Shown in pieces: positions 27,142 to 59,900 of a DNA stretch of 64,000 nucleotides. Within the stretch, counting starts at the first letter, position 1, and every line of letters starts with the position of its first letter. The notes beneath the pieces are model-generated. The model was not told where the DNA came from. It worked only from the letters and a program-made list of their open reading frames with translations, and did not search any database. The stretch is from Euglena gracilis (lineage: Eukaryota): contig CP154954.1 in NCBI GenBank assembly GCA_039621445.1, forward strand, positions 48,525,847 through 48,589,846. The letters are read 5' to 3'. Both the position numbers and the translations under genes were made by a program.

Positions 27142-27190
<49 letters not shown>

Positions 27191-35555: not shown

Positions 35556-38500
35556 ATGTCTCACGACGAGGGCCGCCCGGCGGAGGGGCCGCCGCCCCGC
35601 AAGAAGCTGAAGAGGGCCAAGCCGCCCGCCGCGGCGGACGCGACCGACGCCGCAGCACCGGCGCCGGCGGCCGCCCTCCCCGGGTCGCTCCCCGTCGTGC
35701 CCACGCCGTCCGCTGGGAGGTGCCGGCGGTGTTGGACTCGATTTTTTTTGCTTTCGCTGTGGTCATATATTCTTTTTTTTCTGCACTCTGGCATTTTTTG
35801 ATTTTCTCGTTTTTTTTGTTTCATTGTTTGGAAAAAGGTTTCATTGGAGCATGTGTCTTTGGGACTGCAGCGAGTTTTTTGTTTACCAAAGGCTTGAAGG
35901 GGGAGGGTGAAAAACGCTTATTTGAAAATATTTTTGCAGAATAAAAAAAATGGTTGCAGTTTTTCAAGGTGGATTGGATTCAAGCATTACAATCGCTTTT
36001 TTTTTGTTGATCTCCCTCGGTCTTCGTTCGGCAAGAGTCAACAGTCCTGAAAGTGAGGTGCTGCAGGGTGGGATCATCCAACCAGCCACGGGACCGACAG
36101 CTCCCATTTGGTCTGCTAAAATGACGGGGGCAATGACGGGAAGGAATTGGGGGGTTTCCTGCCATCTTTGTTCCCTATCATTTTTGTTTCCCGTCCTTTG
36201 TTTCCAAACAGTACGCCCCCCCGGGGGGGGGCTTTGTTGGCACACAGCAAGCTGGGCCAGAAGCGAAGTTAGCGCCGGCCATAAACAGACCAGAAGCCTG
36301 AGTGCAACTAAGGGGGGGGGGGCTTTGGTGGCAGCGGCGGCCTGCCGCCCCGATGGTCATCCTGGAGCAGGCGGGCCTCGGGCTGGCGGTGGTGGGCAAG
36401 CGGGCCAACACCCTGCTCTGCCACCAGGAGCACGCCTACTGGCTGCGGATGCAGGGCAAGCCGCCCGCCCGCTTCCGCCCGGACCTCGTCCACCAGACGC
36501 TGCTCGCCGTGTTCGACTCCCCGCTGGCCAAGTCCGGCCGCGTGAGGGACAGGGCGACCCTCATGCTGCGGATGCTGCAGTTTTTTGTTGTTGCTGTTGA
36601 TCCATACCCCCTCAAATGGCCCAAATTTGCTAATGGAAATTCCAGTGGCCCTGGGGGGGGGGTCTGCTGGCAGGGCTTGTAAATGGAAAGTTTTTCCAGT
36701 GACCGGCACAAAGCTCTGAGAGTTTTCTTGGGACCCCCAAACCTTGCCAAAAAGGCCCATTGCAATTTTTGGGATGCATTTCTTCCTCGGCGCACAGCGG
36801 GGGAGAATTTTTTCCCCCAGTCGGGGGGACCACTGGACCACTGGCTGGGAATTGATGGGGTCCACCAGCTGGACAATTTATTAGCCGCTAGGAAAAAGCC
36901 ACTGGCTAGATCCCCCTCCCCCCCTTGGGGGGGAGGAGGATCAAGCTAGTGGCTTTTTTCGAGTGGCTAGTAAAATGACCAGCTGGTGAACCCGGGATGC
37001 TTAAACAAAAGCCTAGTGGCCAATTTGCCACCCAATTTGTGCATTCAATCAGGCAGGAATGCCAAAAAAAGCAACAAAAAATGGAGTTTTGGGGGAGTTT
37101 TTGTTGCAACAATTGATCATATATGTACGGGGTAATCTTTTAGGTGCATTGGATGGATTTAAAAAACATGGGCATGTCCATCTGGCTTTCTTCTCATTAA
37201 TCATTTTGCTAGATCTGGGATTTGAGACATGGAAAGGTATGCCTCCTGTCCCCAGGCAATAGCTTCGTGACAAATTGGCCAGCGCAGAGGGGGGGATTCC
37301 CCAGAATTGCCCACCAAGATTCACCAGCGATGTATTTTTGACCGCTGATGGAGAATGTGGTCACTGACAGAGATTTAAGACCCTCAATATTTGGTGACGC
37401 CTGCATGCATCACGCAGGTTGGGATGGGAAAGAATGGTATCGAAGCGGGGATTTTTTTTAAGGTTGGTGATCTGGGGGGGGGGAGTCCCCCCAGAGTGGG
37501 CGCCTTCCCACCCCAGTTTTCCCTCTATTTTGGGTGTGAAGTGCCGGGGGAAAAAATCAGACCACAAAATTGACCCCAAAATGTCCCCCTGAACCCCCCG
37601 GGGGGTGTTTGGTGTTTTGGTGAGCACTGGACCCCTCCTCCCCCTCGGTCCTTTAAAAAAAAGCGTCCATATCGAAGAAACAAAGACTCCCTTTTTGGGT
37701 GGGCAGGACCTGAAGGCAAATAAAACTAACATTTTTTTTAAACAAAACGAATTTTTAAACATTGAAATCAATTAAATTTAATAATTTTTAAAACATTTTT
37801 TTTTAATTCTGTGCGTCCTCAGCCCAGACTCCCCTTCAGAGCGTCACCCTGGCCCCGGCGTTCATCAACACCGACCGCAACCGGTGCATAGAGATCAACC
37901 CGCAGACCCGCATCCCGCGCACCATGAAGCGGTTCCAGGGGCTGATGGCGCAGCTGCTGGGCCGGGGCAAGGGCACCGTCACCAGCCCGGAGGGGCAGGT
38001 CCTGTTCAACCTCGCGGCCCACCCCATGCGGGCCTACGTCCCGGAGGGGGCCGCCCAGCCCATGGCGTTGCGGCGGCCGCGTTGCGGGGTCGGGTGGGTG
38101 ACGGGGACTCCGCTGTGTTTTTGTAATAGAGTTTTTGCAGTTTTGCAGGTTTTTTTTGCATTTTTTCCAGATTTGCATCGCGGATGCAACACAAAATCAT
38201 CAAAAAGGTCATGCACACGCCACGCCTGAGATGTACGCAAACCGTGTCACGGTGTGGCAGGGTTCTTAGCAGTTACAGAATGCGAGAATGTTGAGCATAC
38301 TGAGTTCTGAGGGATGAGCTTTCCCCAGCATGCACGGCGAAATCGCTACTGGCGTGTGTCCCCGGTTTGTTGGTCAGCCCGTCCCCTCCAGCCTGTCAGC
38401 TTACTCAACTCAATGCACCCAATTTCATTGGTGCATCTCTGCAACCTCTCAGCCACCCCAGGGGCCGGCCTTCGGAATGGGGTTGCACGCCAGGGACTGT

Positions 38501-39183
38501 GGCCAAGGTGTTTTCGCTGACCAACCTGGACCGCTACGTCAACCCCCAATCAGGCGCCATCCACTTGCTTTGCTCCACGGGCAGACAACTGGAAGTTGCA
38601 CACTACGCGTTTTTGGACCAATTTCACATTAGCAGTAGTTGCATGATGGGGACTCCACCAGGTGAACCAACCATATTGCACCACATTTTTGTTTGTTGTT
38701 GCATTTTTGGAGCTGATGAATATAGTCAAGCCCTCTCCAGCAGAAAAGGGTGCAGCCGTGGGGAGCTCCTAACGGACTTCACCTGCAACTTGCATTTTTT
38801 TCCTTTTCATTTTTGTTTGCATTTTTTGTGCATTTTTTTGGCATTTTTTTTGCCTTTTTGCATTTTTTTTGCATTCTTTGCATTTTTTGCATTTTCTTCT
38901 ACATTGCATATCTTGATTTGTTGCATGTTCCCCCCCAGACATGGGAAGGGCCTGCCGCTGGGCCTTCGCCAAAGAGCTGGCGGCGGGGCCGTGCACCCAC
39001 TCCCCCCTATTCCCTGACCCGGTCCAGGCAGTGGTGGTCGTCAACGCGGCCAGCGACGCGCTGGACGCGGTACAGGCGGACTACGTCACGGACAGCGTCA
39101 CGCTGTCCCAGTACCCGATGACCCCCTCCATCGCGTGCTCCAAGGTGCTGGACGCGTTTGAGGGGCTGTGGGAGATTTGGTGA
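35556..39183 (+). CDS. EMG1: 18S rRNA pseudouridine N1-methyltransferase EMG1/NEP1; exons 35556-35719, 36055-36079 (tentative), 36350-36546, 37857-38052, 38505-38547, 38960-39183 (849 nt, 282 aa)
   Basis: Family motifs VILEQA.L, RPDLVHQTLLAVFDSPL, IEINPQTRIPRTMKRFQGLMAQLL and LSQYPMTPSIACSKVLDAFEGLW. The last three introns follow N3CAG...CTGN5 exactly and splice in frame. Confidence 0.93.
36858..36992. repeat. Foldback/hairpin element in EMG1 intron
   Basis: ccagctggacaatttattagccgctaggaaaaagccactggctagatcc is an imperfect inverted copy of ggatcaagctagtggcttttttcgagtggctagtaaaatgaccagctgg. Confidence 0.8.
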
Positions 39184-39848
39184 CCGGCGGCTCGCACCGC
39201 ACACCATTCCCGCACCTGCCCGTCAGCTGCCACAACTCCATTCTCTGCCCTGCTGTGCCCAGTGAGGAAAGGGAGACGTTGAGTGTTGACGAGTGTCCGG
39301 CTCAGAGACCCCAAGGAAGCGGCGCTTTCAAAAAAAACCGTCAGGTAGTTGTGAAGGTTTTGTCAGTACTCCACCATCACAACCATACACACAGGGCGAT
39401 GGCGCTGTGCAGTTTAATGAACTCTTTCACGCAGGCTCGGGTCATTTTCGACCCTTGGGGTGTCAGGTTTTGGGTGGTCAGTATTATGGCACACCCCCAG
39501 TGAAAAGGACCAAAAATGGTGATTTTATTTGTTCATCACGTGCCCCTCTCCATTGTCTTGTATGCAAGGGGTTTCACATGAACAACCCAAGGTTTTATTC
39601 GGGACAATCTTTAGGGGACACTTTTCCCGCTGATGTCGTTTGACCAAAATATGGCCATTTTTTCGGCTTTTTATTCTGTGGGGCAATTTTTTTTCACCGA
39701 GAGGACCGCCCTGATTTTTATATTTTCATTCAGCCTGATTTGACCTCAATAATGGGTGTTTCCGATGGCATCCATCCGAGAACAGTTGTCCGCACTTGTC
39801 CTCCTCCTCAGCCATGGATGACCTGGGCGGTGCCCCACCTTGCTCCCC

Positions 39849-42800
39849 ATGACCAGCCTGTGGAAGGGCGTCCACCGCAACTTGAGCAAAGCGGTGGCCG
39901 CCCGCGATGTGCCGGCGCTGGAGGGCCTTTTCGCCAGGTCGTTCGCGTTGTGTGTCGGGCCTGGCGCGGGGGGCAAGGGGCGTTGCCACAACCTCTGGCC
40001 TCTCTGGATGGAAGTAGCGGCAACGGTGGCCATGTTGGACTCCTCCTCCCCCTCCTCCCGCTGCCTTGCGCCGGCCTCAGGTACAAGCACCGGATCCCGC
40101 CGAAGAGCGTGGTGGACATCATGAAGGTGTTTGCGGGCGCCGGCAAGGTCAGCCTGGTCACCAATGTGTATAAGTTCGTCTCTGGCCCGCCGAGCAGTGG
40201 CCACGCTGTTGCAAATGGATGAGTGGAATGCAGATACCCGGGGCGTGCACGTCTTGTGCTGTGTTTGTTACCAACAAGTGTGTCTGATTTCGAAAACCTG
40301 GTGAGCCCCGCACAACCAATGGATGTCGTTATTGATTGAACTGGTCAAAAACACCTTCGAAAAAATTGATCCACAGGAAACCATTTCTACATCTGCCACT
40401 CTGCCTTTACAAAGCTCAAGCGCAACGGCGTGCCAGGGGACCCTCCACACTCCCCCGTGAGTTGCTGGTGGACGACTCCGAACCAGACCTGACCTCGCGG
40501 GTGTGCCGCGTTCCTTTGCGTCATTCTCCCTCCCCCCCCTCTATGGGCCTTTCCCTCTCATCTCTCCCCAACCCTATGTATGGGTGGTGAGTGCGGGGGT
40601 CGACCCCCCCCCACCCCCATCCTGGTGGTATGGCGGGGGGTCCGACCACCTACCAGGCCTTTCCGCACAGCCCTGGTCTCATCATCCTCATGCACGTTTC
40701 ACAGGAATGAAGTTTCAAGGTCAAAGTTCTCCCTCGTGGGGGGGTCGGGGGGTGAAAAGGATTTATACAACAAAAGGGAGCTACAAACAAGGCACATTTG
40801 ACACAAGGTATTTTTTTTGTTATTTTGGGGCCCTCCGATTGGTTGTGCGCAAAACGTCTTAGTTTCACTGAGTTCATTATACTACTTACAGAAACTGTTA
40901 GTGTCTGTTTGCCAATCAGGGAATTTGTTCAGGTTGGAACCCCCTGGGGGTTAGGGTGTGGGGGTCCGCAACCAGGTTTTGAATAGTGCTGAGCTCTTAA
41001 TAAGCGCGCAGCCACCCCTTCATTAACCCCTCCATACATACCGGCCCACTCCATGGAGCTCTTTTGCCTGAAATCCATGGGTTTTGTGCCAGAAACAGGG
41101 CGCTGGCGGGTCGAAAAACGCTCATTTTCGGCTCGAAAACAGTTTTTCCGGGTCCGGGGCACTGTTTTGGTCAACTTCGTTCGACTTTTTTTGACCCGGT
41201 TTTGACCCAAAGTCAATGGGTCGGCGGCCCAGAACGGGGCGCTGGCGGGTCGAAAAACGCTCGTTTTCGGCTCAAAAACAGTTTTTCCGGGTCCGGGAGG
41301 CCAAAAAACATCGTTTCGGGCAAAAAAAATTTTTGCGATTTTTTTCGCCTTTTTCGACCCGGTTTTGACCCAAAGTCAATGGGTCGGCGGCCCAAAACGG
41401 GGCGCTGGCGGGTCGAAAAACGCTCGTTTTCGGCTCAAAAACAGTTTTTCTGGGTCCGGGAGGCCAAAAAACATCGTTTCGGGCAAAAAAAAATTTCGAT
41501 TTTTTTCGACTTTTTTGACCCGGTTTTGACCCAAAGTCAATGGGTCGGCGGCCCAAAACGGGGCGCTGGCGGGTCGAAAAACGCTCGTTTTCGGCCCAAA
41601 AACAGTTTTTCTGGGTCCGGGAGGCCAAAAAACATCGTTTCGGGCAAAAAAATTTTTTTCGATTTTTTTCGCCTTTTTCGACCCGGTTTTGACCCAAAGT
41701 CAATGGGTCGGCGGCCCAAAACGGGGCGCTGGCGGGTCGAAAAACGCTCGTTTTCGGCTCAAAAACAGTTTTTCCGGGTCCGGGAGGCCAAAAAACATCG
41801 TTTCGGGCAAAAAAAATTTTTGCGATTTTTTTCGCCTTTTTCGACCCGGTTTTGACCCAAAGTCAATGGGTCGGCGGCCCAAAACGGGGCGCTGGCGGGT
41901 CGAAAAACGCTCGTTTTCGGCTCAAAAACAGTTTTTCTGGGTCCGGGAGGCCAAAAAACATCGTTTTGGGCAAAAAAAAATTTTTTCGATTTTTTTTCGA
42001 CTTTTTTGTCCGAAAACGGCTAAGTCGAACAGAGGGAAAAGTGTACAAAATGGCCTGAAATGGCCCAAATTGGCCAAAAAAACGCCCGTATCTCGGGCTG
42101 GGCGGGGAGTTGTGGGGAAACCAAAATCCCAGTAGATAGAGCGTTCCAAGGGCTTCAATTTAGGTCTCCGGACATTTCCTTTGATTTTGCATCATTTTCG
42201 AGAAATTTTGAAAACATCGATTTTTTGACCCCCACCCCCCCGAAAACGGCTAAGTCGAACAGAGGGAAAAGTGTACAAAACGGCCATCTGCACCGAAAAC
42301 GGCCGTATCTCGGGCCAGGCGGGGAGTTGCAGGGAAATCAAAATACCGGTGGATGGGGCGTTCCAAGGGCTTCAATTTAGGTCTCCGGACATTTCCTTTG
42401 ATTTGGCTTCATTTTGGAGATATTTTGAAATTTGACATTTTTTGGCCGAAATGGCAGAGTCCAAAGGGGGGCTTATCCAGGGGGGGCGGGTAAATCCTAC
42501 CGAGTTTGGACCCCTTCGCGCGTGAATAACTCGGGCCTGGCGGGGAGTTGGGGGTCAAACCCGGGTGATTCGGAAACTAAAAATCCAGTCGCTCGCGACT
42601 GAAAAAAAAAATTCCGGGAACCGGGCCGGGATCATGGTGATAATCCGTCCGTTCCCGAGGTGGCCCCGACGGGGGGTGGGGGTGGTGGGGGGGGGGGGGA
42701 GGGGGGGGGGTCGAGGGGGGGGGGGTTCGCCGGTGGTAAGCTTCGCTCTTACCCGTAAAAGGGATAAGAGCTCAGCGACCAGGGTGTGACGTAGAGCTGA

Positions 42801-43686
42801 GCTCTTTGGGGGACCATTCCGGCCCGGCCCGCGAAAAACGCTCATTTTCAGCTCAAAAACATGTTTTCCGGGTCAGGAGGCCAAAAAACATGGTTTTGGG
42901 CGAAAAAATTTCGATTTTTTTCGACTTTTTTGACCCGGTTTTGACCCAAAATCAATGGGTTGGCGAACCTAAAAGGGGCCCTTGAGGGACGAAAAACGCT
43001 CATTTTTAGCTCAAAAACACTTTTTCCGGCTCCGGGAGGCCAAAAAACATGGTTTTGGGCGAAAAATTTTTTTTCGATTTTTTTCGACTTTTTTGACTCG
43101 GTTTTGACCCAAAGCCAATGGGTTGGCGAACCAAAACGGGGCGCTGGCGGGTCGAAAAAAGCTCATTTTCAGCTCAAAAACACTTTTTCCGGGTCCGGGA
43201 GGCCAAAAAACATGGTTTTGGGCGAAAAATTTTTTTTTGATTTTTTTCGCCTTTTTGGCCCGAAAACGGCCAAGTCGGACAGTGGGAAAAGTGTACAAAA
43301 TGGCCATTTGGACCGAAAAACGGCCATATCTCGGGCCAGGCGGGGAGTTGGCCCAAACTGCGAATACCGGTGGATAGGGCGTCCCAAAGTTGTGGAATGA
43401 GGTACTCTTTACTTTTTCTCAACTCCCCGGCGTTTTCGAGATATTTTGAATTTTTCGATTTTTTGACCCCAAAAATGACCCCCTGTGGCCGGTCCAACAA
43501 ACTTTCTTTGGAAAAAAAACGGTAGACAACTTTTTTGCTCGGGCCAGATCTCCGGACCGGCGGGGAGTTGCGGGCAAAATGCGGGCTCTGGACAAACTAG
43601 GGACCCTCTCCTAACCTATAGGCTATTAACTTTTCGGGTCCGGAAATCAGGTCACATCGATAATCCGCGGGGGCCCGGGCCTACTC

Positions 43687-43718
<32 letters not shown>

Positions 43719-46700
43719 AGGGGGGGTCTGGGGGGGGTGGTAAGCTTCGCTCTTACTCTAAAGAGATAAGAGCCAAGCACCTATAGTCAAAATGGCCGAA
43801 AATGGCCGAAAATGGCCGAAAATGGCCGAAAATGGCCGAAAATGAAATTTTGGGCTCTATAGGTGGGGGTCCCGAAAATGGCCGAAAATGGCCGAAAATG
43901 GCCGAAAATGGCCGAAAATGGCCGAAAATGAGAAAAAAATCATTGCAAAAATTTTCGAGTTTTTTTTTTTGCCCAACAGCTTTGCCCAACGCCTGAGGAA
44001 CGCCTGAGGGGCGATTTCCAGTGCGACTGATTCTTGTCTCTGTGCAGCCTCTGTTCTCCTGCCATTATGCCTGGCACTGCAACACATGCTGCTCAAAGAA
44101 CCACCTCCGAAAAGGTTATTTGGGCTTTGATGACATTTCAGAAAATTTTGGTGACAAGGGCGATGCTGGCATTTTTTTTTGTATTTTTTGAAGAATAAAA
44201 CCCATTTTTGGGATAATTTCTCCACAAATCTCCAGTATTACGCCCATTTTGGCCATTTTTGGATCAATTTTTGCTGATTTTGGGGTATTTTGCACTGATT
44301 TGGCAAATATTGTGCTAATTTGGGTCAATATGAGCTCATTTTATGACATTTCCGGCCATTTTGCGCCATTTTGGTGATTTGGGTTATTTTTCACTTTTTT
44401 TTTGTGGACATTGTTGGCGTTTTTGGGCAATTTTTGGTTATTTCAAGCCATTTTAGGTCATTTTGTGTGCTTTTGGGGACTTTTTGTGGACAATTCTGGG
44501 CTTTTTGTGGTCATTTTTTTTGGGTTTTTGCGGTAGGTTGGGAGCCAGTGGATGAAGACATTAGGCAAGACACAAATATTGGACAAGACGAATTGAATGG
44601 AGATACTGGACAAGATGCAATGGTTGCAGATACTGGACAAGATGCAATGGATTACCACCTGTCGGAGCCCGCATTTACGTCCGCTACGTTCCCGGTCGGT
44701 CCTCTTCCCGGTCCCACTCCCACTCCCGGGCCCACATTCCCTGCCCCTGGACTGGCAACCGCCCCCACAGCTCTCCGTGGCCCCACCGCCCCTCGCTCTC
44801 TCGGTAGCCCCACCCCAAGAAGACCAAGGACCCGAAGCCCGAAACCCGAAGCCATGAAACCCATTAGATCCTCCTGCACTGGGAGTGCGCAGCGCACCCT
44901 CTCTGTTTCTCCCGATGCCTCTGCCCCTCTTCTCCCTTCTCCAACCACCCCCTCCCTACACACGCTGCTCGACACTCTACACATCATTCAGGAGCAGCTC
45001 GACGGCTTGCGGCTGACCATCTATGCAGCTGCTGATCCCGAGCAAGGACATCAACGCCATTCTCGGGACCCATCTGAGGGTCCAAACCGCCGGCGGCGGA
45101 GTCGTTCATCGCGGCAGAGGAAGCCAAGCAGTCCGCCTCCCGCCCACATACACCCCACCAGCTCATCGCCCTCGCCCCCAACCTACGCGGAGGCGGTGCA
45201 GTTGCCGCCACCATCGTCATCATCGTAGCAGCTGGTGCAGCCCAAGCAACGCCAACAACGCCAACAAGGAGGCCCATGCCGCGCGGAGCAACAGGTGTCC
45301 CGAACCCCGGCTCATTCGGGCTGGTATCCCGAGCCCCGCAGGCCCGGCCGGTTGCGGGTGGGCGAGCATCCCGTGTGGAGCCTCTCCCCAAACCCGGCCA
45401 GGTGCCCTCCCTCTCCTCCCCTCCTCCCTGCCCTCCCATTCCCCCGGTCCTCTCCAACAGAAAAAATGGATGCAGATACTGAACAAGATGCAGATGCTGG
45501 ACAAGATGTATATGCTGCAGAAATTGGGCAATTGGGTGAGCGCATTTGATGTCAATATTTCAACATTATGTGCTGATCACATGTTTGCTTGCTTTTGCTC
45601 TGAGCTCAAGCCGAGCGCACTTTCTTCCAACTTCGCCACATCCAGACGGATGATCATCTCATCATGACAGATGAAATTTAACATCAAGGCTTCTTTGAAG
45701 TGATGGATTTGTGCCATTTAGATTTTTCACGATATTGCAACCAATTTTTTTTTGACCTCTTTAATCCCTGAGCACCCATATCAAACGGACCTCTTTGGAT
45801 GTGTTGATTTGTTGCTCACAACTACTTTCACGTTGCATGAATGATCAAATGCATTGTTGGTATGAAAGGATTTTAAGGTAATTTTACCCCCCACCTATAG
45901 GAAAAAATGGCCGAAAATGGCCGAAAATGGCCGAAAATGGCCGAAAATGGCCGAAAATGGCCGAAAATGGCAAAAATCGGGGTGTCAACTATAGGTGCTT
46001 GATAAGAGCTCAGCGACCCCTCCATACATACCGGCACACCCCATGGAGCTCTTTCATGGAGCCCGGTTTTGACCCAAAGTCAATGGGTCGGCGGCCCACA
46101 ACGGGGCACCGGCGGGTCGAAAAACGCTCGTTTTCGGCTGAAAAACAGTTTTTCCGGGTCCGGGAGGCCAAAAAACATCGTTTTGGGCAAAAACAAATTT
46201 TCGATTTTTTTCGACTTTTTTGACCCGGGTTTGACCCAAAGTCAATGGGTCGGCGGCCCAAAACGGGGCGCCCGCGGGTCGAAAAACGGTCGTTTTCGGC
46301 TCAAAAACAGTTTTTCTGGGCCCGGGAGGCCAAAAAACATCGTTTCGGGCAAAAAAATTTTTTTCGATTTTTTTCGACTTTTTTGACCCGGTTTTGACCC
46401 GAAGTCAATGGGTCGGCGGCCCAAAACGGGGCGCCGGCGGGTCGAAAAACGCTCGTTTTCGGCTCCAAAACAGTTTTTCTTGGTCCGCGAGGCCAAAAAA
46501 CTTCGTTTCGGGCAAAAAAAAATTTTTCGATTTTTTTCGACTTTTTTTATTTTTTTTTGACCCAAAGTCAATGGGTCGGCGGCCCAAAACGTGGCGCTGG
46601 CGGGTCGAAAAACGCTCATTTTTGGCTCGAAAACACTTTTTTCGGGTCCGGGAGGTCAAAAAACATGGTTTTGGGCGAAAAAAAATTTTTGAATTTTTTT

Positions 46701-47878
46701 GACTTTTTGACCCAAAACCACCGGCCAGGGGGGGGGCATCCAGGGGGGGGGCATGGGGGGGGTCCGGGTCGGAAAATTTTTTTTCGCTCAAAAACACTTT
46801 TTTTGATGTTCTGAAGTGAAAAAAAGTGTTTTTGAGCGAAAAAATTTTTTCAAAATTTTGGGTCCCAACCTGCCACCCGACCCCCCCTCACCCAGCCGCC
46901 CTGACGGCGCGCGATGGGGTCCCCGAACACCCAAAAACTGGCCAAAATCGCACAACCAGACCCCGGGAACCCCAAAAAACGGTCAAACCCCCCCCCCCTA
47001 AACGTAATGTTTGACCCCCAGTTTGGGTCCCAACTCCCCGTCTATCCCGAGATACGGCCAATTTACGGTTTCGGGCCCTGAACGGGCCAGAACTGGCCAA
47101 ACGGGCCCGAAACCCCCAAAACGGCCGAATCTCGGGCCCGGCGAGGAGTTGTCCCAAACCGCGCATACCGATCGATAGGGCGTTCCAAGGTCGTCAAATA
47201 AGGTCGCCGTCACTTTTCCTCAACTCCGCAGTGTTTTCGAGATATTTTGAAATTTTCGATTTTTAGACCCCAGCCCGGCAGCCCTCGAACCCCCGCAGGG
47301 GTCCCCGAATACCCAAAAATGGCCCAAAATGGCACAACCAGACCCCGGGAACCCCAAAAAACGGTCAAACCCCCCCCCTAAACCTAATGATTGACCCCCT
47401 GGTTTGGGCTCCAACTCCCCGTCTAGCCCGAGATACGGGCAAATTACGGTTTCGGGCCCCGAACGGGCCCGAAATGGCCAAAACTGGCCCAACTGGCCCA
47501 AAACCCCAAAACGGCCGTATCTCGGGCTAGGCGGGGAGTCGGCCCAAACCGCGCATACCGATCGATCGGGCGTCCCAAAGTTGAGGAATGACGTCCTCTT
47601 TACTTTTTCGTAACTCCGCGGCATTTTCGAGATATTTTGAATTTTTCAATTTTTTGACCCCAAAATGACCTGCAAATTTCCCCGGAAAAAAAAACGGTAG
47701 ACAACTTTTTTGCTCGGGCCATATCTCCAGACTGGCGGGGAGTTGCGGGTAACCGAAGGGCTCTGGAGGAACTAGGGACCGTCCCCTAACCTATAGGCCA
47801 TTAACTTTGGGGGCCACGAAATCCAGTCACATCGATAATCCCGGGGTTTCCGGATCTACCCAGGGGGGGGCGGGGGGG

Positions 47879-47928
<50 letters not shown>

Positions 47929-50900
47929 TGGTAAGCTTCGCTCTTACTCTAAAGAGATAAGAGCTCAGCGACCCCGCCATACATACCGGCCCACTCCATG
48001 GAGCTCTTTTGCCTGAAATCCATGGGTTTTGTGCCAGAAACAGGGCGCTGGCGGGTCGAAAAACGCTCATTTTCGGCTCGAAAACAGTTTTTCCGGGTCC
48101 GGGGCATTGTTTTGGTCAAAAAAAAATTTTTGATTTTTTTCGACTTTTTTTGACCCGGTTTTGACCCAAAGTCAATGGGTCGGCGGCCCAGAACGGGGCG
48201 CTGGCGGGTCGAAAAACGCTCGTTTTCGGCTCAAAAACAGTTTTTCCGGGTCCGGGAGGCCAAAAAACATCGTTTCGGGCAAAAAAAATTTTTTCGATTT
48301 TTTTCGACTTTTTGGACCCGGGTTTGACCCAAAGTCAATGGGTCGGCGGCCCAAAACGGGGCGCTGGCGGGTCGAAAAACGCTCGTTTTCGGCTCAAAAA
48401 CAGTTTTTCTGGGTCCGGGAGGCCAAAAAACATCGTTTTGGGCAAAAAAAAATTTTCGATTTTTTTTCGACTTTTTTGTCCGAAAACGGCTAAGTCGAAC
48501 AGAGGGAAAAGTGTACAAAATGGCCTGAAATGGCCCAAATTGGCCAAAAAAACGCCCGTATCTCGGGCTGGGCGGGGAGTTGTGGGGAAACCAAAATCCC
48601 AGTAGATAGAGCGTTCCAAGGGCTTCAATTTAGGTCTCCGGACATTTCCTTTGATTTTGCATCATTTTCGATAAATTTTGAAAACATCGATTTTTTGACC
48701 CCCCACCCCCCCGAAAACGGCTAAGTCGAACAGAGGGAAAAGTGTACAAAACGGCCATCTGCACCGAAAACGGCCGTATCTCGGGCCAGGCGGGGAGTTG
48801 CAGGGAAATCAAAATACCGGTGGATGGGGCGTTCCAAGGGCTTCAATTTAGGTCTCCGGACATTTCCTTTGATTTGGCTTCATTTTGGAGATATTTTGAA
48901 AATTGACATTTTTTGGCCGAAATGGCAGAGTCCAAAGGGAGGGGGGGGGGCGGGCCGATCCTACCCAGTTTGGACCCCTTCGCGCGTGAATAACTCGGGC
49001 CTGGCGGGGAGTTGGGGGTCAAACCCAGGTGATTCGGAAACTAGAAATCCAGTCGCTCGCAACTGAAAAAAAAAATTCCGGGAACGGGGCCGGGATCATG
49101 GTGATAATCCGTCGGTTCTCCTGGTGGCCCCGAGGGGGGGGGAGGGGGGGGTCGAGGGGGGGGATTTCGCCGGTGGTAAGCTTCGCTCTTACCCACCCCC
49201 CCTACCCCTGGGGGCAGGGTCGAGCCGAGTGGGTCCCCCCGGATAGGGGGAGGTTTCCATTATTTTCGTCACGAAGCCCCAAAAATTCTTTTTGACCCCA
49301 AAACTGACCCCTAAAAGCGGCCCTAAGGGGACCACTGGAGGACCCCCGGCACAGAGGGGGGGAGTGGGTCGGATGCCCCCTCCAACTCGAAACACTGGGA
49401 AAATTTTCGGTTCTGTGGATGGTCCAAGGGCTGGATACAAAGCCAAACCTGCTGGAAAATCCCTGATATTTCTTTGAAATAATCCAACAATTCTCATTTT
49501 TTTGAATTTTTCTTACGTGGAAAACGCCAAAACATCCAAAAATGTGGAAGTATATTTTAACTCCAGAAAAAAGTCGTTTCGCTTTCTGGCGGGCAGCACA
49601 CCACACACTAATATTTTTCGCTATTTTCAGAACCTTTTGGGGGTTGGGGGCCTCCCCTACCACCTACCCCCCCCCCTCAGGCTGTCAGGGGATCTGGGGG
49701 GGTTTCCCATACGTCCCTGAGGTCCTCCCTGATGGGTGCGGAGACTGCGCCTCCCCCCCACGGTCTCAAAAAAACCTTTGTTGCCAATGTCGCGGTTCCG
49801 GGTTCGATCCTGGCGGAATCACTTTTTTGGATGCACACATCAAAAGGAAGTTCCTTACACAACACGTTAACACAATGTTTTTTTTGGCCCGCTGTCAGTG
49901 TGTGCAACTACAAAAGTCAAGCGTCAAAAAAAAATCCATCTGCCAAGATGGAATCGGAAATTTTGCATTCGGATGCAGATGCCCCAATCATGATCACAGT
50001 GGAGCCTCCAACGGAGCACCCTCCCACCGTCCCCCTCCTCCCCCTCCCAACACTCGCAGGGGGGGGGTTGCCCACTCCTTGACCTCCCCCGCCCAGGGCC
50101 CCACGCAGCGCGACGCGGCCGTCGCCCCCTCTGTCCTCGATTTCCGTGACCTCTCCCTCCAGTTCTACACCCACTTCTGCCCCGGGTCGCCCTGAGCCTT
50201 CAGGAGGGGGGGGGGTAGGAGGTCCCTCGAGGACGTGGGAGGGCCCCATCGGGGTTTGACCGCAAACAGTAACCTGAGGAGGCCTTGGAAGGTCAACCGA
50301 CGGGTTGGCTGCTCAATTGTTGGGTGGGCCGACTCTGCTGGCTATTCGAACAATTGTTGGGTCGGCCAACTTGCTAGCCGATCAGTCGGTCGACCCCAGA
50401 CCTCCATTTAGTATGTAGCACCAAAAAATTTTTTACGTATCACATGTATCACAGCCTAAAAATTAATGTATCACATATGTATCACCAAAAAAATTTTAAT
50501 GTATCACATATGTATCACCAAGATTTTTTTAATGTATCACATATGTATCACCAATTTTTTTAGAAATTTTTACATTTTTACATTTTTACATCGAAATGTT
50601 TTTTCAGCTTCCTGTTCCACTTTTTATTCTTGTTTCTTTGCCTCTCTGCCTCTGCTGACAAATGGAACATGCGCAGGGGGACCTCGAATCCTCTGCAGAA
50701 TCATCTTCTGTGGCATCAGTCGGGGTTGAGGAAGTTCCGAAAGAGATGTTGTTATTGGAGGTCGTTTCAACACAGAAGGAAGAAAGTGATTACTCTTGTC
50801 CATGGTTTGAGGAATTGTTGTCTCGGAATCCTGTATTCCGTCGTTTTGAAGGTTCCCTTCGGAAGGAGGGCTTTGACAGCAAGGAAACTTTTGGATTCAT

Positions 50901-53900
50901 CACAATTGAGGACATGGCACGCATGGCAATTCCACCGGGGGTGAGGCGTCTTATGGAAGACGTAAAGGGTCAGTTGGCAGTTTTATCCAGCACAGTGTAG
51001 AAGACTTCATCTCATCCCGACCAAAAATTAAAAAATAGCGGCTGAGAAGTTGCTGACAAAAAAACAAAAAAAATATGGCTCCCGGGGACCCGCCCGCCCA
51101 AAGAGAAAACCCCGTGCATGCCTCAAAAACGGAAAAAAAAAGATGGCGGGGACCTGTTTTGGCAGACAGGTCAGCACCAAGCACCTATGCCGACCGCAGC
51201 TGACCACAGCCGACCGCGGCCAACCGCCCAACTTTTTTCTAATTGATGTCAATTTTTCAGTGAGAATTAGGAATTAGGCTCATTTTTATCCCAGATTTTG
51301 AGATTTTTCTGGCTCATCTGGCTCATGGTGTCACTTTTGGCCACTTTTGGCCACGTTTGGCCACTTTTGGCCATTTTAGGTTGCTTTTGTCTCCTTTTGG
51401 CCCATTTGTCACCATAATTCATCAATTTTGACCTATTTTGACCATTTTGGCCACTTTTTGCCCACTTCTTGTAATTTTGGGCCATTTTGTCCTGCTCTTG
51501 GGCCATTTTGGGGCCATTTTTGACCATTTAAAGCCATTTTCGACCCTTTTTTTGTTATTTTTGCCCATTTTTTTGGTCTCTTTTTGGTCCAATTTGACCA
51601 TTTTTGAGCATTTTGTGCCAGTTTGTTGCCAAAAGTGAACAAAAAAAAGCTTCTAAAGTGACCAAAATTGGCCAAACGCAAGGCCATTTTGGGTCATTCT
51701 TGGCCACTTTGGGCATTTTTTTTGTTATTTTTGCCTGCTTTTGGTAACTTTTTGGTCCATTTTGATCATTTTTGACCATTTTGCACCAGGTGCAGCTTCT
51801 GGAGTCTCAAAAACAGTGGCCAAAACAGCTTTTCTTTGGCCTCTTTTGCCCACTTTTGGCCATTTTAACCATTTTTGCCCCCCACCTACGGCCGACTATT
51901 TTGCCGACCACTGCCGACCGCAGCCGACCGCGGGCTAAAATTTGGAATCTGTCATAGGTGCTTGGGCAGCACCACGGAAGTGGGGCTGGAGCAGCCATGG
52001 GACCTGAGTTCCTGAAGCCCGGGTGAGCGCCATCTTACGTGCGTCTGTGAATTTTTCATCTTAAAAATTTGTGTTTCACAATTTTATTATATGTTTCACC
52101 AAGGAGAATTTGTGTATCACATATGTATCACCAAAAAATTTTTAATGTATCACATATGTATCACCAAAAAAAATTTAATGTATCACATACGTATCACCAA
52201 AAAAAATTTAATGTATCACAGATACGTTGTGATACGCACTAAATAGAGGTCTGGTCGACCCACAGTCTAACGCATGTACGGAGGGGGGGGGGTGTTTTCT
52301 TTAGGGTTCGTGACAAAGGAATGTCATTTTGAGTTGTTTTTTTTAGCATTTCTGACACACCAGAATGATTTATGTCATGGATGCTCCGACATCAATGCTA
52401 CCCTCACTTTGCAGCATGGTCTCCCTCCATCAAAAGCACTTCTGAGGGCTTTCGATAGATGGCGCAGCTTCACGTGCTCTTGTTCTGGGCGATCATAGGC
52501 TCTAAATATTTAACGTTGGTCGTCGACCGTCATTTTCGATAGTTCTTGCCATGTTGCCCCTTGATTGCAAACTCTTTGCGAGGGTTTTTAACAGATGGGC
52601 TTTCCACAGAATCCAACCAGGCTGCATATAACTCTTATTCAGGGAATTTGTCCCCCCCCCAATGCACCCAATACCCAAGGGATTTGCCCCCAAAGCGCAT
52701 GTACATCACAAGGGATTTTGTTGTTTTTTTGGGCCCTCAGAATAGTTGTAGGGGGGGAATTAGTATCCGCAATCTCTCCGCAATTCTCGCAGTTTTCCGC
52801 AATTTCCGCAATCTTCCGCAGTTTTCTGCATTTTTTTTCGCAATCTCCGCAATTTTTTTCTGCAATTTTTTCCTTTGCCGCATTTTTACACATGAACCTG
52901 AAACGGAAGGCGAGATGAGATTCTGCCAGTTCTGGAGCGTTTCACAAGGGAACCTGGGTACTTTTTTTTGTCATTTTGTTACGAATTTGCCAAAATTTGT
53001 CAAATTTTACAAAATTTGACAAAATTTGGCAATTTCTTGGTCTCTTTAAGGTGTTTTCCCAATTACTGCTGGGAAATATTTTCGACTTCGAAAAATTCCT
53101 CATTGGACTGGATTTTTTTCTTTTGCCATTTTCGTATTTTTCACCCAAGAAATTCCACATTTCCAGAATCAGCATATTCCCAAAATTACAGAAATCATGT
53201 TTCTTTAAGAGTCTAATGCACTTGGTGCTTTGGACCACAAAAAATTTACTTGAAAATGGCCCCAAACTTATGCATTTGTCCAAAATGTGCAAAAAAACGT
53301 CTCACAGTGGAAAAAAAGAACTTCTCTTGCGGTCCACAAAAGAAGTTGCTTTGGGTTTTTGGGGGTGTTTTGGGGGCAAATCCCTTGTGTCGCTCAACTG
53401 CAGGGGGGGGGGATTGGCATCGGAGGCCTTCGGAAAAATTGCGGGAAAATTGTAGAAAATTTGCGAAAAATTTGTGGAAAAATTGATATCGGGAATACAT
53501 ACAGGCCACTTGGGGTCCCCCATGGTTGGTTTGGGTCCCCAGGTGGGTCCGTGCAGTTCCCCGGTAATTTTCGAAAAATCGATTTTTTGACCTCCGCAAG
53601 GCGAAAAAATGGCCAAGTCCTGTGGGAACCCCTTTTGGGGGGCCCCGTACGGGCCCCAAAAACGGTCCGGATGGGCCGGGGCATGTGGGGTGTTCACATT
53701 TCTGCTGGAGGGGACTTACAAAAATTTCACAAATTTGGTCATTTTGCAACTCAAGCGCAAGTTTTGAGCTGGTAATCACTTTTTTTTTTTCAACGAAAAG
53801 GTCCTGGGTCGGCCGATTAGTCCGTCGACCCAACACTTGGTCGGCCGACTAGTCGGTCGACCTTTTATCAGCAGAACCCCCCCCCCTGCTCCAAAGGCGA

Positions 53901-56900
53901 GTCGGTCAACCCAACAGGATCCACAGGCTACGTTGGCCCTCTGAGCGACCCGGTCGGCTCTCCACCTTCGAGGCCAACCCACTGGAGGTCCCACGCCTAC
54001 TGGAGGTGTTGAGGGAGGACCGGCACGTCCCGTGGTGCACAGCGCTGTTCAACTCCCTGTTCCGGTGTGTGCGTGCATTATGGGTGCATACGTGTGAGCT
54101 TGGGGCGCCTCTGTTTTTTTGTGTGTGGTGTGCGCGCGTGTGTGCATGCGCGCGTGTGTGCATGTGCATATGCACACCCACACGCCACATGTGTGTTATA
54201 ATGTGTGTGCAGATTCCTCGAAGAGTTCTGTGATGCGGGAATAATCAAAGGATGCGATCATTGAAACGTGCATGATTGTGAATGCTCTGAAAGAATATCC
54301 CCTTGGGCCCAGACCGGGGATTTCTCAAGCCAGACCAACCTACTCTGGGGGGGGGTCCAGTCGGTCAGCATTTTTTTTCAGTCAGTAGCTCCTAGCCAGG
54401 CTGGCGCCCCCCCCTCCACGCCGAGTCGAGTGGAAATAACATTTTTGCAGCCTGGCAAAGCAGGGCTGGACCAAAAAAGGGGGTCAAAATGGACAGAATG
54501 GCATTTATTGAAGTTTTTTTTTATGTGTTTCCACCTCAATGCAATAGCGCTGACATGCAAACCCCTCAGTGTCGACGTTGTGTGTCGCCTGGTGGTGTCT
54601 GGTTGGCTTTGCGGGGCCGTCAATCTCACACTGTCCGCAGGGGGTCCAGCCTGTGGGCTGGAAACAGGTGATGGCTGGAGAAAAGGTGCTGGCGGGACCC
54701 TTACCCCTTAGCGGGTGGGGGTCCAGGGGGGATGTGCCCAGCTGGCGCACAAAACAGGCGGAAAATCCCATATCCAGCTGGGTTGTATTTTTCAGACACT
54801 TTGCGGTGGAAACACATAAAATGTACGAACCAAGTGCATTGACACAGCGCGTCGTTGACAGCCGTTCGGTGGACAAGGGTAAGGGGGACAAAGGGCCCCG
54901 GGCCACCCTGTCCCATTGCAGGGCCCTCAGCCGAGCGAAGCGGATGGACGACGCCTGGCACCACTTCGGTAGGATGCGCCAACTGGCGAGGTGCCCGCCA
55001 GCCTCTCCCTCATCCCATTGGGCGTTTGAGCGTTCGTGTCTTGCATTTGAAGTTGTGGATCTTTGTCCCCCCCCCTCGAATCAATGGTTCCTTGACTGGG
55101 TTTGGTGTCTCAGCTACTTCATTGCCTACAGCAACGCAGGCGTTGTTTTGACACATGGCTTTGAACAACAAACCACAGGAGGAATGGTTTGGCGGCAGTT
55201 CGGGGCCTGGCGCTTCTCCCCTCCCCCGGCTGCCACAGGAAGCGCCCCCACTGTCGGCCGGACTCCGCCACGTACTGTACGTTGCTGCTGGGGTTCGCTG
55301 CGGCAGACTCCCATGGCTATTGTGAGCAGGTGCTGACGTTCCTGGAACAGGTGTGGGCCGTGTGCATGGATCCACGCTCACATGTACATACACACATTTT
55401 TTGGACCACATGTTTGTCAGGATGACTGACATTTTTGAGTGTACCTTTCAGAAATTGATTCTTCTTTTTCGACTTTTTCCAGCATCCGAAGAGAATTTCA
55501 AAAGATTTATTTTATGTATATATTTTTCACCTTTTTGGAGATGGACAATTTGTGATGGCATACGCTGATATAATTGCACAACCAAAACTGGTGATTGCAC
55601 ACAAGGTGAATTTTTTTCTGTGTGGAGGAAACCCAGTTAATGGACAAAAACCTCGCATCTGGCTTTGACACATTCATCTGAAATGAAAAAGGCAGCTGAG
55701 TGTGTCTGCAAAGGGGCAAGTGCAATTTCAAAATATGGCACTGATCGGCCAACAAACAACAGTGGATCGAGAAAAAAATCATTAAAATTTGAGATGAAGG
55801 CTGTTTGCCTTTTTTCTCCCCGACTAATTCACCAACTTTTTTACCCCTAATTAATTGATTATCCATCCAGACCTGTTTCTAACACAAAGGAACAAAATCA
55901 CAGACTGAAACATTGAAAACATTTGTTTCTTTAGCCAGAGTACAATGTCGTCTCTCAAATTCTGCTGACCAAGAAAAAACTCAAATTTCAAGGATGGGCC
56001 AGCAATTGAGTGACTGAGCAGAATGTACATGTCACCCACCGCACGATGTGGCGGGGGATCCAGGCCAGCCTGGTGACAGAGGCACACCTCTCAACCACAA
56101 AGGCTGTTCTGAGTCCGAAAATGCACTTCTTTTAACGTGTCACGCTCAGTATTCCCTTTTTTCTGACATCTATTGGTTTGAAAATCTAAGTCATTGGGTT
56201 ATTCCATCCCCGCGGACCTTTTTTCCCTTGTCTGAGTTTAACCTTTGGGAGATGCGTCATGTCAGAATAGCGACCGAACAACACATGGTCGAATTGTATG
56301 GGACCTCCTGTTTGTCCCTCTCTGGCCCACGTGTCATTTAAAGGAGCACTGGCGCTTGAGGCCAGGAACGCTCGCCGTAAGTCCGTCCGTCGTGGCCGCT
56401 CCCACCCACCCCACCGCACAGGACACATGGGTGGTGTGGGACCCGCCGCTCTACGCCGCGGTGCTCGAGGTGTGCTGCCTCGGCCCAATGGGGGCCAGCC
56501 CATTACCCCATTGCCTCGCCTTTAGGTCCTTCCTCCCCCTAGGTGCCTCCACCCGGGTGGGATACCCATGGGGATACTCAAGCTTCAGTATTCAAGCTCA
56601 ACCAGCACCAAAGGATCTTTTGAGCATTTAAAACAGCGCCCATGAGCCGGCTGAATTCAAAGGCGGTGCCGACCCCACCCCAGGGGGGTGGGTGCCTGCC
56701 TGGGCAGGCACTCCAAGGCACCCAGATCCGACCCCGGGGGGGGGGGGGGCACATGGCCAAAAGTGCCTGGGCACTTGACCAAGGCACTTCCAGCGCCAAA
56801 GACGCCGGAAGCCCAGAAAAAGCCATTTTTGGGCACTTTTTGGCCCACGGCCAGGCAGGCACCCCAGTTTGGACCCCTTCGCGGGGGCACATGGCGGTAG

Positions 56901-59900
56901 ACTGGGGGGGGGGTAGTGGGTAGTCGGCCGACTAGCCGGCGAAATACCCACTCTAATGTACTAACGGGTCGAAACCGCCGACTTTTAACCCCCCCCCCAT
57001 GAACAAAATCCTATGCAAACTAGTCGGTCCCGGGAGGGGGGGTAGCGCCTGCCTGTCCAGGCACTGCAGGGCACTCCGAGATCCCCCTCCCCCCCCCCGG
57101 GGTCAGTTTCCGCCTGCCCATGAGCATCCTTGGCTGGCTCTGGATGACGCTCATGGGCGCTTGGGAGCATTCTGGAGTGGTGCCACTCCAGGATGCACAG
57201 AACCAGTTGTGAGCATCCATTTATTGGATATGAACACATTTTTCAGAGGACAGATCCCTGCAAACGGTTCCACAGAAAAGGGCTTGCACAGCAACAGGGA
57301 TTGGTACACACAAAACGTGCGTTCAGCATTCGATATAATTGCGACCGGTGGGGGGCACATTTTTAAGGCGAAAATTCAAAAAAAATTTGGGGTTTTAAGG
57401 CATTTTGAGAATTTCAAGATTTTTTTAAGGCGTCCATTTCCATTGGCAGTCAAAGAGCCACCTGGGCTTCGAACCAACGGTCCAGGTTGAAAATCAAACC
57501 AATTTTTTGAGCTTTGGGTGGATAGATAATGTTCAAGCGATGCCAGAAATCATTTTTTTTCCCCGGAGCCAGAGTTAGTTTGCTTTTTCCAAGATTTTGC
57601 AATTTCTTTTTTGCTCGACTTCCGAAAAATTTTCCACGGCCAATTTCTTAAGGTTTTTTTGAGGTTTTTTTCAGGCATTTTGGCCAATTTTTTTTAAAGG
57701 TTTTCTAAGGTTTTTTTAAAGGTGTCTTAAAAAATAATGCCTGGTGGGGTGTTTGCCCCCTTGACTGCAGGGGGGTCTGCATCGTCCCCCCCCCCCACCT
57801 GTAAACCCCCCCCAAAAATAAGACCCGGGTCTTATTTTTGGGTCCGTTGCTGGAAGCCTCCAGGGGGGGTCTTATTTTTGGGGGGGGTCTTATTTTTGGA
57901 TTTTTTCTTGACCGACCCGGGCCCGAAAAAACAACATTTTTCAGGTTCCCAAGAGCACTAAAATTTTTCCTTCGGCGCTTCGCGCCATGTGAAAATTGGT
58001 GTAAATTGACATTTACCATGTTTTTTTGACCTTCAAAAATATAAAATTTTTTGAATTTCATCATTTTTGTGTGTGAAATTGGGGTTTTTGGTAATATTGC
58101 AGGGAAAATTTTCACCGTCCCCGGCGCTTCGCGCCGTCAAGGGGGGTCTTATTTATGGGGGGGGGGGTCTTATTTTTGGATTTTTGCTCGATCGGCCCAG
58201 GGGTGGTCTTATTTTTGGGGGGGGGGGTCTTATTTTGGGGGGGGGTCTTATTTTTGGGGGGGGTTTACCCGGGACCCTCCCAAAGAGATCCAATTTATCT
58301 TTCGGGAGCTTTGGGAAATTTTTGGAAATTTCGACGTTTTTACCCAATAAGTCCCCAAAACAACATTTTGGGTCAATTTGGGGGGGTAGTCAAATATCAG
58401 CTCCTCCTTTGTGCCTGTGCCGCTGTTTAGGTTGGCCCCTCTTCACTGGGGGGGGGGGCGACCCACCCCCATCTGCCTTTACATCAAATCCTGCATGCGC
58501 TCTGAAGCCTTCGGACGCTCATGAGCACTCAAATTCCAGTGTTTCTCAAGGATGGGTGTGAACATCAGGAACCTCCTCCGACGGTAACCCTGTTTCCACC
58601 CCGAAGTGCCATGCACCAGGGGATTTTCAGAGGGGCTTTGTCCCTACCCCCGTCAATCAGCCAGCACTCCCAGCTGCTGGCTTGGCAAAAGGCTGGGTCT
58701 ACAAAACAGCTGTGGCCATCCCGAACAGCCAAGCTGAGCCGAAATTATCGCAAGCTGGAGGAAACCTTCGAAAGGGTGTTGAAAAGTGCCAAAAATGGGA
58801 GGTTGTTTCCTGGATTACCTCAAGGTTTTTGGCTGAAAAATCATTACCCCCCCCCCCTAGTCGTACGACCACCCCTCATTTATGACCACCCCCCGGTCAC
58901 AGGTTGCAGGTCATGGGGGTGTTATGACCACCCCCCCCGGTCACAGGTTGCAGGTTGCGAAAAATTTAACCCCCAAAAATAAGTCCCCCCCCTGGCCGGT
59001 CCGAGCAAAAATCCATGAAATGGACCCCCCCAAAATAAGGTCCCCCCTGCCGGCGCGAAGCGCCGGATTTTTGAAAAATGGGACATTTTGGGGGGGGTAA
59101 ATCTGCCATTTTGGGACAGTTTTCACACACTTCTACGACCGCCCCCTCATCTATGACCACCCCCCGGTCACAGGTTGCAGGTTATGGGGGTGTTATGACC
59201 ACCCCCCCCGGTCACAGGTTGCAGGAACCCGGTCATACGACTAGGGGGGGGGGTACCTAGACGGATTTGCTTTCAGGTCGCAGCCAGTACTTTTTTTTTT
59301 AGTCGGCCGGACACCCCCCCAGGCTTGCATACGACATTCCTTTGCCTGCACCAACACCGCAGGCGTTCCTCCCGGTGAAGGGGGTGGCTTTCGCCCGCCA
59401 GTGCCACCGGGAGATGCGGGAGCGTGGGATCCGCCCCACCCCCAAGGTGTACGACCTGTTGCTCCAGGTGTGCCGGGGGAAGGACGAGGAGAGGGTTGTT
59501 GCGTAGGATCACGATGAGTATTGTCCGAGACAGCCAGCTTCTCCCCTCGAAATGAAATGAAAATTTTGTCGCCTTCTACCTCCCACGTTGTTGGCTTTCT
59601 CTTGGGTGCTGCTTCTTCGTATTCAAACTCATCCTCTCCCCAAAGCCAGGCTCCTGCATAACTGAATACAGTCTGGACAAAATGACGGGAAACAAAAAAG
59701 ATGGGAAATTTTCTATTTTGGAACAAATTAATGATGGGTAAAATGGCGGTAAAATTTTTGGCAAAAAGATGAAATTTACAAAAAATGGTGCAACCACTTG
59801 ACTCTGTGGGGGTGTGTGGGGTGGCGTTTGCACTATATATTGCAAAAATTGGCGCCCCACTGGCCTTAGTGGTGGGGGGGGGGAATTTGCTAGTGGGGCC

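Follow-up and report, generated by a model that had tools for sequence, protein, structure and literature searches.

In a 64,000-nucleotide (nt) stretch of Euglena gracilis DNA (contig CP154954.1, positions 48,525,847 to 48,589,846), referred to here as the window, we analyzed three elements, designated A, B and C, that are bounded by terminal inverted repeats (TIRs) and 8-bp target site duplications (TSDs). The reading that we favor, with moderate confidence, is that A, B and C belong to one group of transposons, that C was inserted into a coding-like block where it fits the code for the nonconventional (NC) introns of Euglena and would be removable, and that A and B would not be removable. 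C is present twice, as C1 and C2; D and E are elements of other families in the same window. Positions are those of the window and are collected in Table 1.

Shared ends of elements A, B and C

The interval 43766-46009 consists of element A and two perfect 8-bp duplications, ATAAGAGC. The TIR of A, CAAGCACCTATAG, is 13 bp long and perfect. That of B, CAAGCACCTATG, matches at 12/12, and the TSD copies of B, GTCAGCAC and GGCAGCAC (51170-51177 and 51965-51972), agree at 7/8. When the right end of C is read as its reverse complement, CAGGCACCTGTG, it agrees with the end of B at 10/12 and with the 13-mer of A at 10/13. Overall, A and B agree with the right end of C at 10-11/13 and with its left TIR at 8-9/13; for D and E the agreement with any of the three is 6-9/13. 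Among 115,932 background 13-mers outside the elements in the window, two are as close to the end of A (10/13). The TIR consensus of the group is CA[A/G]GC[A/G]CCT[A/G]T, with a length of 11-13 bp, and the end pattern used to describe the group is CARGCRCCTRY...RYRAGGYGCYTG.

The three elements also have an inner motif, CCCCACCTRYRG, for which there are five matches in the window against 0.19 expected; all five lie in A (twice), B, C1 and C2. The CCCCCACCT motif is found 113 (A), 85 (B) and 89 (C) bp from the right ends. A composite right-end pattern gave five matches in the window against 0.00 in 100 shuffles, the pattern being derived from the same copies. The inner motif copies the TIR core of the element in which it lies (CCTATAG in A, CCTGTGG in C), and GGACCCCCACCT is common to the right end of C and the left inner motif of A. 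Invariant CCCCCACCT and AGGTGC-TG blocks were seen in the two alignments made (A1 and A2). Arrays of GCCKA spaced at 10 bp, in direct orientation, are present at both ends of A, B and C. From the left end they are located at 22-62 (A), 12 and 32 (B) and 23-73 (C), and from the right end those of A and B are in a common register at 42, 52 and 62 nt.

An earlier reading of this DNA from its letters alone (the sequence-only reading) had reported that the right end of C matches the TIR of free copies, that the internal motif recurs near the right ends and that the free copies have 8-bp TSDs. All of these claims were borne out by the counts above, and C likewise has a TSD pair, GGCACGGG/GGCACGGC. 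Its claim that subterminal AAAATGGCC repeats are shared needs revision for B, whose subterminal arrays are CCGACCGCRG and whose AAAATGGCC-like repeats are internal and inverted; what A and B do have in common is the GCCGA core and the 10-bp register. The free copies end in CAA...TTG as described, but for the label "intronic" given to them no support was found, A lying in satellite-rich repeated DNA and B inside element D.

It is conceivable that C resembles A and B by chance, or in ways generic to the elements with 8-bp TSDs in this genome, so that no family exists. The left TIR of C is as close to E as to A (9/13 each), and the interiors share only short repeats. Since the left TIR does not separate A from E, the family link rests on the inner motif and the arrays and not on the TIR alone. 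Against coincidence, however, each of the five inner-motif matches belongs to A, B, C1 or C2, with its distance from the right end conserved, GGACCCCCACCT recurs in C and A, and the arrays share one orientation and a 10-bp register; D and E have neither the inner motif nor the arrays. We regard coincidence as a most improbable explanation. The shared end architecture of A, B and C is far beyond chance, and on these comparisons we accept the three as one group of non-autonomous cut-and-paste DNA transposons. Our best guess for the superfamily of this group is hAT-like, and an 8-bp TSD, one of the criteria for hAT, is found in each case (8/8 in A, 7/8 in B, 7/8 in C). The composite right-end pattern was found in three stretches of metagenome contigs, all GC-rich, coding-like and without the 10-bp arrays, which were judged to be chance matches; in viral contigs there were none.

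Element C and its empty sites

C is located in an array of about 17 tandem repeats of a 1254-bp unit (window 1-16500 and 21000-28500). In every unit a coding-like block of about 200 nt, GC-rich and rich in Ser/Thr, is near-invariant, while the remainder varies by 4-39%. As some units have lengths that are not divisible by three, a gene in this array would consist, in each unit, of one exon-like block and about 1 kb of intron.

C is an insertion, as is evident from its 8-bp duplications and from 15/15 empty paralogous units. These other units have the uninterrupted site, ...GAGAGC GGCACAGC CTCC..., exactly in 13 cases, with one substitution in another and with a 3-nt deletion in the last; the exact GAGAGCGGCACAGCCTCC is carried by 13 units. 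In the filled site C stands between GGCACGGG and GGCACGGC, which agree at 7/8, and their single mismatch is within the spacer that the predicted intron described below would remove. The hallmarks of a transposon (TIR and 8-bp TSD) and an intron-less homologous site are thus both found for C. An independent DNA run, X2, has contigs that span both junctions of C1. Word depth in this run is 40-80 in 12 of 17 bins of the interior of C, against 63-65 on the left flank; word depth is not copy number, and nothing in these values points to a high copy number of the interior.

C1 and C2 are one insertion that was later copied by a 2.6-kb tandem duplication. The two elements are 91% identical and their flanks 98.6-99.6%. 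C1 and C2 diverge in a mosaic pattern, by 1-3% over the 5' part and by 15-25% over 23424-23900, a pattern suggestive of gene conversion. The interior of C has no match elsewhere in the window, and the interiors of A, B and C are unrelated beyond short repeats. Between C1 and C2, the segment 24268-24351 has an X2 word depth of about 64,700 against about 65 nearby, which probably marks a repeat of very high copy number. Within 22000-24500, RNA reads fell on this segment only, and each of them was a partial fit.

Fit of C to the nonconventional intron code

The NC intron code, 5'-N3CDG-/-CH'GN5-6:R-3' (here and below a colon marks the exon boundary), was defined by knock-in mutagenesis (Nomura et al. 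2025, PMC12501133). According to that work, splicing is lost when CAG or CTG carries a single substitution, the upstream 3-nt spacer is strict, and the downstream one has 5 (or 6) nt; pairing beside the motifs is essential, and the downstream exon should start with a purine. This code is the relevant splice consensus here because the open reading frame (ORF) of A is identical at 201/202 positions to an E. gracilis transcript protein.

The sequence at C reads ...GGCAC:GGG CAG GCGCC...GGTGC CTG GGCAC:G GCC.... In both C1 and C2, CAG is located at +4 to +6 after a 3-nt spacer on both strands, and CTG, whose middle base is complementary to that of CAG, is located at -8 to -6 and is followed by 5 nt. 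The downstream exon would start with G on either strand. The ends of C can pair, CAGGCGCCUGU with ACAGGUGCCUG, over 11 bp with one G.U. The energy of this end duplex is -22.8 kcal/mol on the + strand, against -13.7 +/- 3.2 for shuffled 3' arms, and -18.3 kcal/mol on the - strand, against -10.2 +/- 2.4; folding of each end separately was uninformative. Since the CAG...CTG ends pair, C fits the code whichever strand is transcribed. The CAA...TTG ends of A and B still pair, yet they fail the CDG rule at +4 to +6 and the CH'G rule at -8 to -6. The sequence-only reading had held that the CAG...CTG of the exonic copy fits the splice consensus; this is true for the NC code of Euglena, which CAA...TTG breaks. 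What matters for splicing is thus the terminal triplet and not the GT/AT difference at TIR position 10. The inner motif plays no role in the code.

The N3 spacer of the predicted intron is formed by the last 3 nt of the left TSD of C and the N5 spacer by the first 5 nt of the right TSD. As 3 + 5 = 8, the predicted intron is equal to the element plus one duplication (1503 nt), and removal of 22473-23975 would restore GGCACGGC exactly. In the mechanism that we propose, C was inserted into the most conserved, coding-like 200 nt or so of the 1254-bp unit and then copied once with the 2.6-kb duplication. Cuts inside both TSD copies would remove C and one duplication, restoring the 8-bp site and the reading frame. 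RNA-level removal of C would in effect be a precise excision, giving a junction of ...GAGAGCGGCAC to GGCCTCC.... A and B, with CAA...TTG, change two positions at which single substitutions abolished splicing, and are predicted not to be removable.

Removal of C by the conventional spliceosome was also considered, from GT at 22485 (or GC at 22479) to AG at 23962-23963, which would leave 24 (or 18) in-frame nt. The candidate introns, of 1479 and 1485 nt, keep the frame with stop-free peptides, A and B have AT in place of GT at the same TIR position, and introners of Aureococcus are described as adding 4 + 8 nt (PMC9860276). However, the donors CCT:GTTGCG and CAG:GCGCCT fit poorly when compared with CGC:GTGAGG and TGG:GTGACG in the EMG1 gene of the window and with GAG:GTGGGG in the host unit. 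A much better donor, the perfect conventional GTGAGT, is conserved 100 nt inside C (22576-22581; 25198-25203 in C2) and would add a stop codon. No GY...AG pair removes exactly C and its TSD, the in-frame pairs being found only inside the TIRs, and the NC code gives an exact, scar-free solution. Removal by the spliceosome is therefore very unlikely in our view.

Coding character of the host block

Several features of the sequence suggest that the host block, with a predicted 71 codons, is coding-like and exon-like. Its GC content by codon position is 0.55/0.80/0.89, with a third-position value (GC3) like that of EMG1 (0.92-1.0), and no such difference between positions is seen in a control stretch. 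On either side of C the + frame stays open. About 180 nt around the C site are near-invariant among 13 units (pairwise difference 0.000-0.008), against differences of 4-39% in the flanks, and the 3-nt deletion at the site in one unit is in-frame. From these features we infer that the block may be a transcribed exon. In our reading C would be excised from it, and CAA...TTG ends would block such excision.

A number of findings weigh against this view. No RNA reads fell on 22000-24183, whether on the flanks or the element, in three RNA runs of which about 5-6% each was sampled. With the + frame of the block, a search of longer predicted proteins found none similar, and a search of 1.84 billion representatives gave one weak low-complexity match (E 4.6e-4); with the - frame no similar predicted protein was found. 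The protein collection searched includes at least one E. gracilis transcript protein. The few substitutions between units are not concentrated at third codon positions. As to the ends, D and E, which are unrelated to C, also end in CAG...CTG with perfect 8-bp TSDs, and no coding signal was found around them. The failure of CAA...TTG to splice is an extrapolation, as the compensated double change is absent from the variants described in the accessible part of PMC12501133, and in E. agilis 38.8% of NC introns are reported to be off the code. The equal closeness of the left TIR of C to A and E, noted above, belongs with these points.

C might instead be no intron but a transposon that landed in a repeat array that is decaying or not transcribed, CAG...CTG being the ordinary ends of its superfamily and CAA...TTG a subfamily trait unconnected with location. 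The lack of RNA reads and of a matching predicted protein, and the CAG...CTG ends of D and E, are in keeping with this, as are the differences between C and A/B at TIR positions 3, 10 and 12 and at the matching inner-motif positions, which are those of separate lineages. It accounts less well for the codon-position GC periodicity and the open frame on both flanks, for the insertion site in the most conserved part of the unit, for duplicate flanks that are 98.6-99.6% identical when the element is 91%, and for the agreement with every rule of the NC code on both strands. We consider it a serious explanation but an unlikely one, and retain removal of C as an NC intron as the preferred reading.

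Selection on the termini, and a search for autonomous copies

The sequence-only reading proposed that only family members with splice-compatible termini survive in exons. The difference in terminal triplet on which it drew, CAA against CAG, is real, but positions 10 and 12 of the TIR differ too. Such a selection filter would be drawn from one independent exonic copy set against two others. Lineage explains the CAG/CAA difference as well as selection does, because positions 10 and 12 and the inner motif change together with it. Most simply, the terminal G of C is a subfamily trait inherited before the insertion. CAG...CTG looks like the common state of this class of transposon (three of the five independent elements here), with CAA...TTG the deviant.

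The same reading took this filter to make an intron generator of a MITE family, for which the window gives no support at scale: there was no second independent insertion of the C type within it. Introners are recognized as many near-identical introns in unrelated genes, and the window contains a single independent insertion. The autonomous copy with a hAT or P transposase that the same reading had envisaged was not encountered. A Pfam scan of all 269 stop-to-stop ORFs of at least 90 aa ending beyond 16.5 kb, in which exons of less than 90 aa would be missed, matched no transposase family. The only curated Pfam matches in the scanned part were two exons of the EMG1/NEP1 gene, and Rfam gave no match in the window.

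Element A and its surroundings

A is an insertion, as its paralogous empty sites make clear. The left flank of A aligns to 47593-47964 and the right flank to 47957-48009, with an overlap of exactly 8 bp. Because of this overlap, and because only one ATAAGAGC is found there, 47957-47964 is taken as the empty site; a second empty paralogous site is located at 42764-42771. Arrays of a 163-bp satellite surround the insertion site and its empty paralogue (41187-42006, 42832-43256, 46062-46713 and 48105-48476), and the region of 41-50 kb is a larger duplicated block.

The ends of A (43774-43869 and 45888-46001) look like self-contained modules of about 100 bp, each made of the outer TIR, a AAAATGGCCG array and an inverted TIR core. 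On the opposite strand the inner motif of A reads YAG:GTGGGGG, resembling the conventional donor GAG:GTGGGGG of the host repeat unit near 24126.

The transcript protein matched by the ORF of A follows the EG_transcript naming of the E. gracilis transcriptome paper (PMC6366073), which points to E. gracilis or a very close relative as the source of the DNA. GC by codon position in this ORF is flat (0.63/0.67/0.59), unlike that of host genes, and no Pfam family was matched. The ORF may represent a transcribed segment, non-coding or foreign, that A carries. Related tandem repeats of 18-27 bp are found on either side of it (44576-44652 and 45469-45517).

Table 1. Positions of elements, duplications, motifs and related sites in the window
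Feature	Position	Strand	Description
Predicted NC intron	22473-23975	.	1503 nt, GGG-CAG...CTG-GGCAC then G; prediction only, by sequence rules
Element C1	22476-23970	+	1495 bp, termini CAG...CTG, in conserved block of 1254-bp repeat unit
Left TSD of C1	22468-22475		GGCACGGG
Right TSD of C1	23971-23978		GGCACGGC
C1 inner motif	23882-23893		89 bp from right end
Element C2	25099-26557	+	1459 bp, duplicate of C1; TSDs 25091-25098 and 26558-26565
Empty paralogous site for C, example of 15	3644-3651		GGCACAGC
Element A	43774-46001	+	2228 bp, non-autonomous TIR element, termini CAA...TTG
Left TSD of A	43766-43773	.	ATAAGAGC, same letters as 46002-46009
Right TSD of A	46002-46009	.	ATAAGAGC, 8/8 match to left TSD
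AAAATGGCCG arrays in A	43789-43838, 43875-43924, 45904-45971		
A, left inner motif	43857-43868	-	CCCCACCTATAG; + strand reads CTATAGGTGGGG; exact reverse complement of right-end inner motif
A, right inner motif	45889-45900	+	CCCCACCTATAG, 113 bp from right end of A
Empty paralogous site for A	47957-47964	.	Single ATAAGAGC
ORF inside A	44620-45228	+	201/202 identical to P0007, eukprot EG_transcript_13114 (Euglena gracilis transcript protein)
Element B	51178-51964	+	787 bp, termini CAA...TTG
B inner motif	51880-51891		
Element D	50397-52253	.	1857 bp, other family, host of B, termini CAG...CTG, perfect 8-bp TSD GTCGACCC
Element E	32246-32603	.	358 bp, other family, termini CAG...CTG, perfect TSD ATTGGAGG

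Elements D and E and other features of the window

Since B was inserted inside D, B moved after D. The TIR of D is CAGACCTC[C/T]ATTTAGT, and D has 33-bp subterminal tandem repeats. The TIR of E, CAGGCTTCTTTTTAAG, is perfect over 16 bp, and on either strand E conforms to the NC intron code. Just upstream of the EMG1 start codon there is a partial E-like stretch (36250-36320). A loose scan for CDG...CH'G combined with TIR and TSD gave 12 matches in the window, against 1-7 in 20 shuffles. From these A, B, C1, C2, D and E only were accepted, each having a TIR of at least 8/9 or a TSD of at least 7/8 together with other features. Other TIR-like matches (29394, 56346-57163 and elsewhere) were dropped, being without a partner end or a duplication.

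The EMG1/NEP1 methyltransferase gene (36353-39184, + strand), with a GC3 of 0.92-1.0, is the only Pfam-recognizable gene in the scanned part. Its introns, of about 1.3 and 0.9 kb, are of the GT-AG type, with the donors CGC:GTGAGG and TGG:GTGACG, and a protein-atlas search with an EMG1 exon gave no usable match. Homopolymer runs were seen at 13470-13603 (T x134), 26988-27213 (A x226), 43688-43716 (G x29) and 47863-47922 (G x60).

Implications and comparison with known systems

The origin of NC introns from miniature transposable elements with inverted repeats (MITEs) has been proposed by Milanowski et al. in 2013 (PMC3935182) and 2016 (PMC4770533) and is taken up in a review (PMC11282704). The 2013 paper states that no transposable element had then been identified in euglenids. 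In E. agilis gapC, the junctions of a recently gained NC intron are marked by 8-nt direct repeats, which were attributed to double-strand-break repair (PMC4770533). In the review, of 2024, NC introns are drawn with TIRs and TSD-like repeats at their borders (PMC11282704), and in 2025 the origin was called unclear or merely plausible, with a MITE-like source suggested (PMC12501133, PMC12621601). In the literature covered, which did not extend to the supplements of PMC12501133 and PMC4770533 that may bear on the point, we found no report in which a named transposon family is connected with a euglenid NC intron or the 3 + 5 nt are equated with a TSD.

We tentatively suggest, as a possibility that is less probable than the removal of C itself, that the NC code, N3-CAG...CTG-N5:R, is the RNA image of the ends of one DNA-transposon superfamily together with an 8-bp TSD. 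If so, NC splicing would be a scar-free excision at the RNA level, and 3 + 5 = 8 would follow from cut points inside the TSD copies. Whether a subfamily can persist in exons would be decided by a single transition that turns the terminal CAG into CAA (and CTG into TTG), and the origin of NC introns would become a matter of a census of identifiable transposon families. The case described here offers a code-fitting insertion with an 8-bp duplication, many empty sites, relatives outside coding-like sequence and a reading of the spacer rule, along with the prediction that CAA...TTG copies are not removable. It is a concrete, checkable case for the long-proposed transposon origin of NC introns.

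Elements of the hAT superfamily have 8-bp TSDs, short TIRs beginning with CAG and short subterminal repeats, and MITEs are short (less than about 0.8 kb), non-coding and present in high copy number. The present group shares with these the 8-bp TSD, the short TIRs (beginning with CAG in C) and the subterminal repeats, and B is of MITE size at 787 bp. However, typical MITEs are smaller than A (2228 bp) and C (1495 bp), A has a transcribed ORF, and A and B begin with CAA.

Like C, the introners of Aureococcus, Micromonas, Polarella and Symbiodinium (PMC9860276, bioRxiv 10.1101/2020.10.14.339549, PMC12130899) are non-autonomous DNA transposons with TIRs and TSDs, and they turn into introns when inserted into exons, as is proposed here for C. 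The classes with 8-nt TSDs work in both orientations, and copies are also found outside genes (PMC9860276, 10.1101/2020.10.14.339549, PMC12130899). Introners are spliceosomal, with GT/GC/GA...AG derived in part from the TSD, and many are near-identical, whereas C is without a fitting GY...AG pair, is a single insertion and has a unique interior.

With the known NC introns C, as an intron known here by prediction only, shares CAG at +4 to +6, CTG at -8 to -6, paired ends, a purine at the start of the downstream exon, direct repeats that can be slid and a length in the reported range. It differs from them in being tied to a defined transposon group with other copies outside coding-like sequence, in having a demonstrable empty site, and in that its spacers of 3 and 5 nt would correspond, on our reading, to the two parts of an 8-bp duplication.

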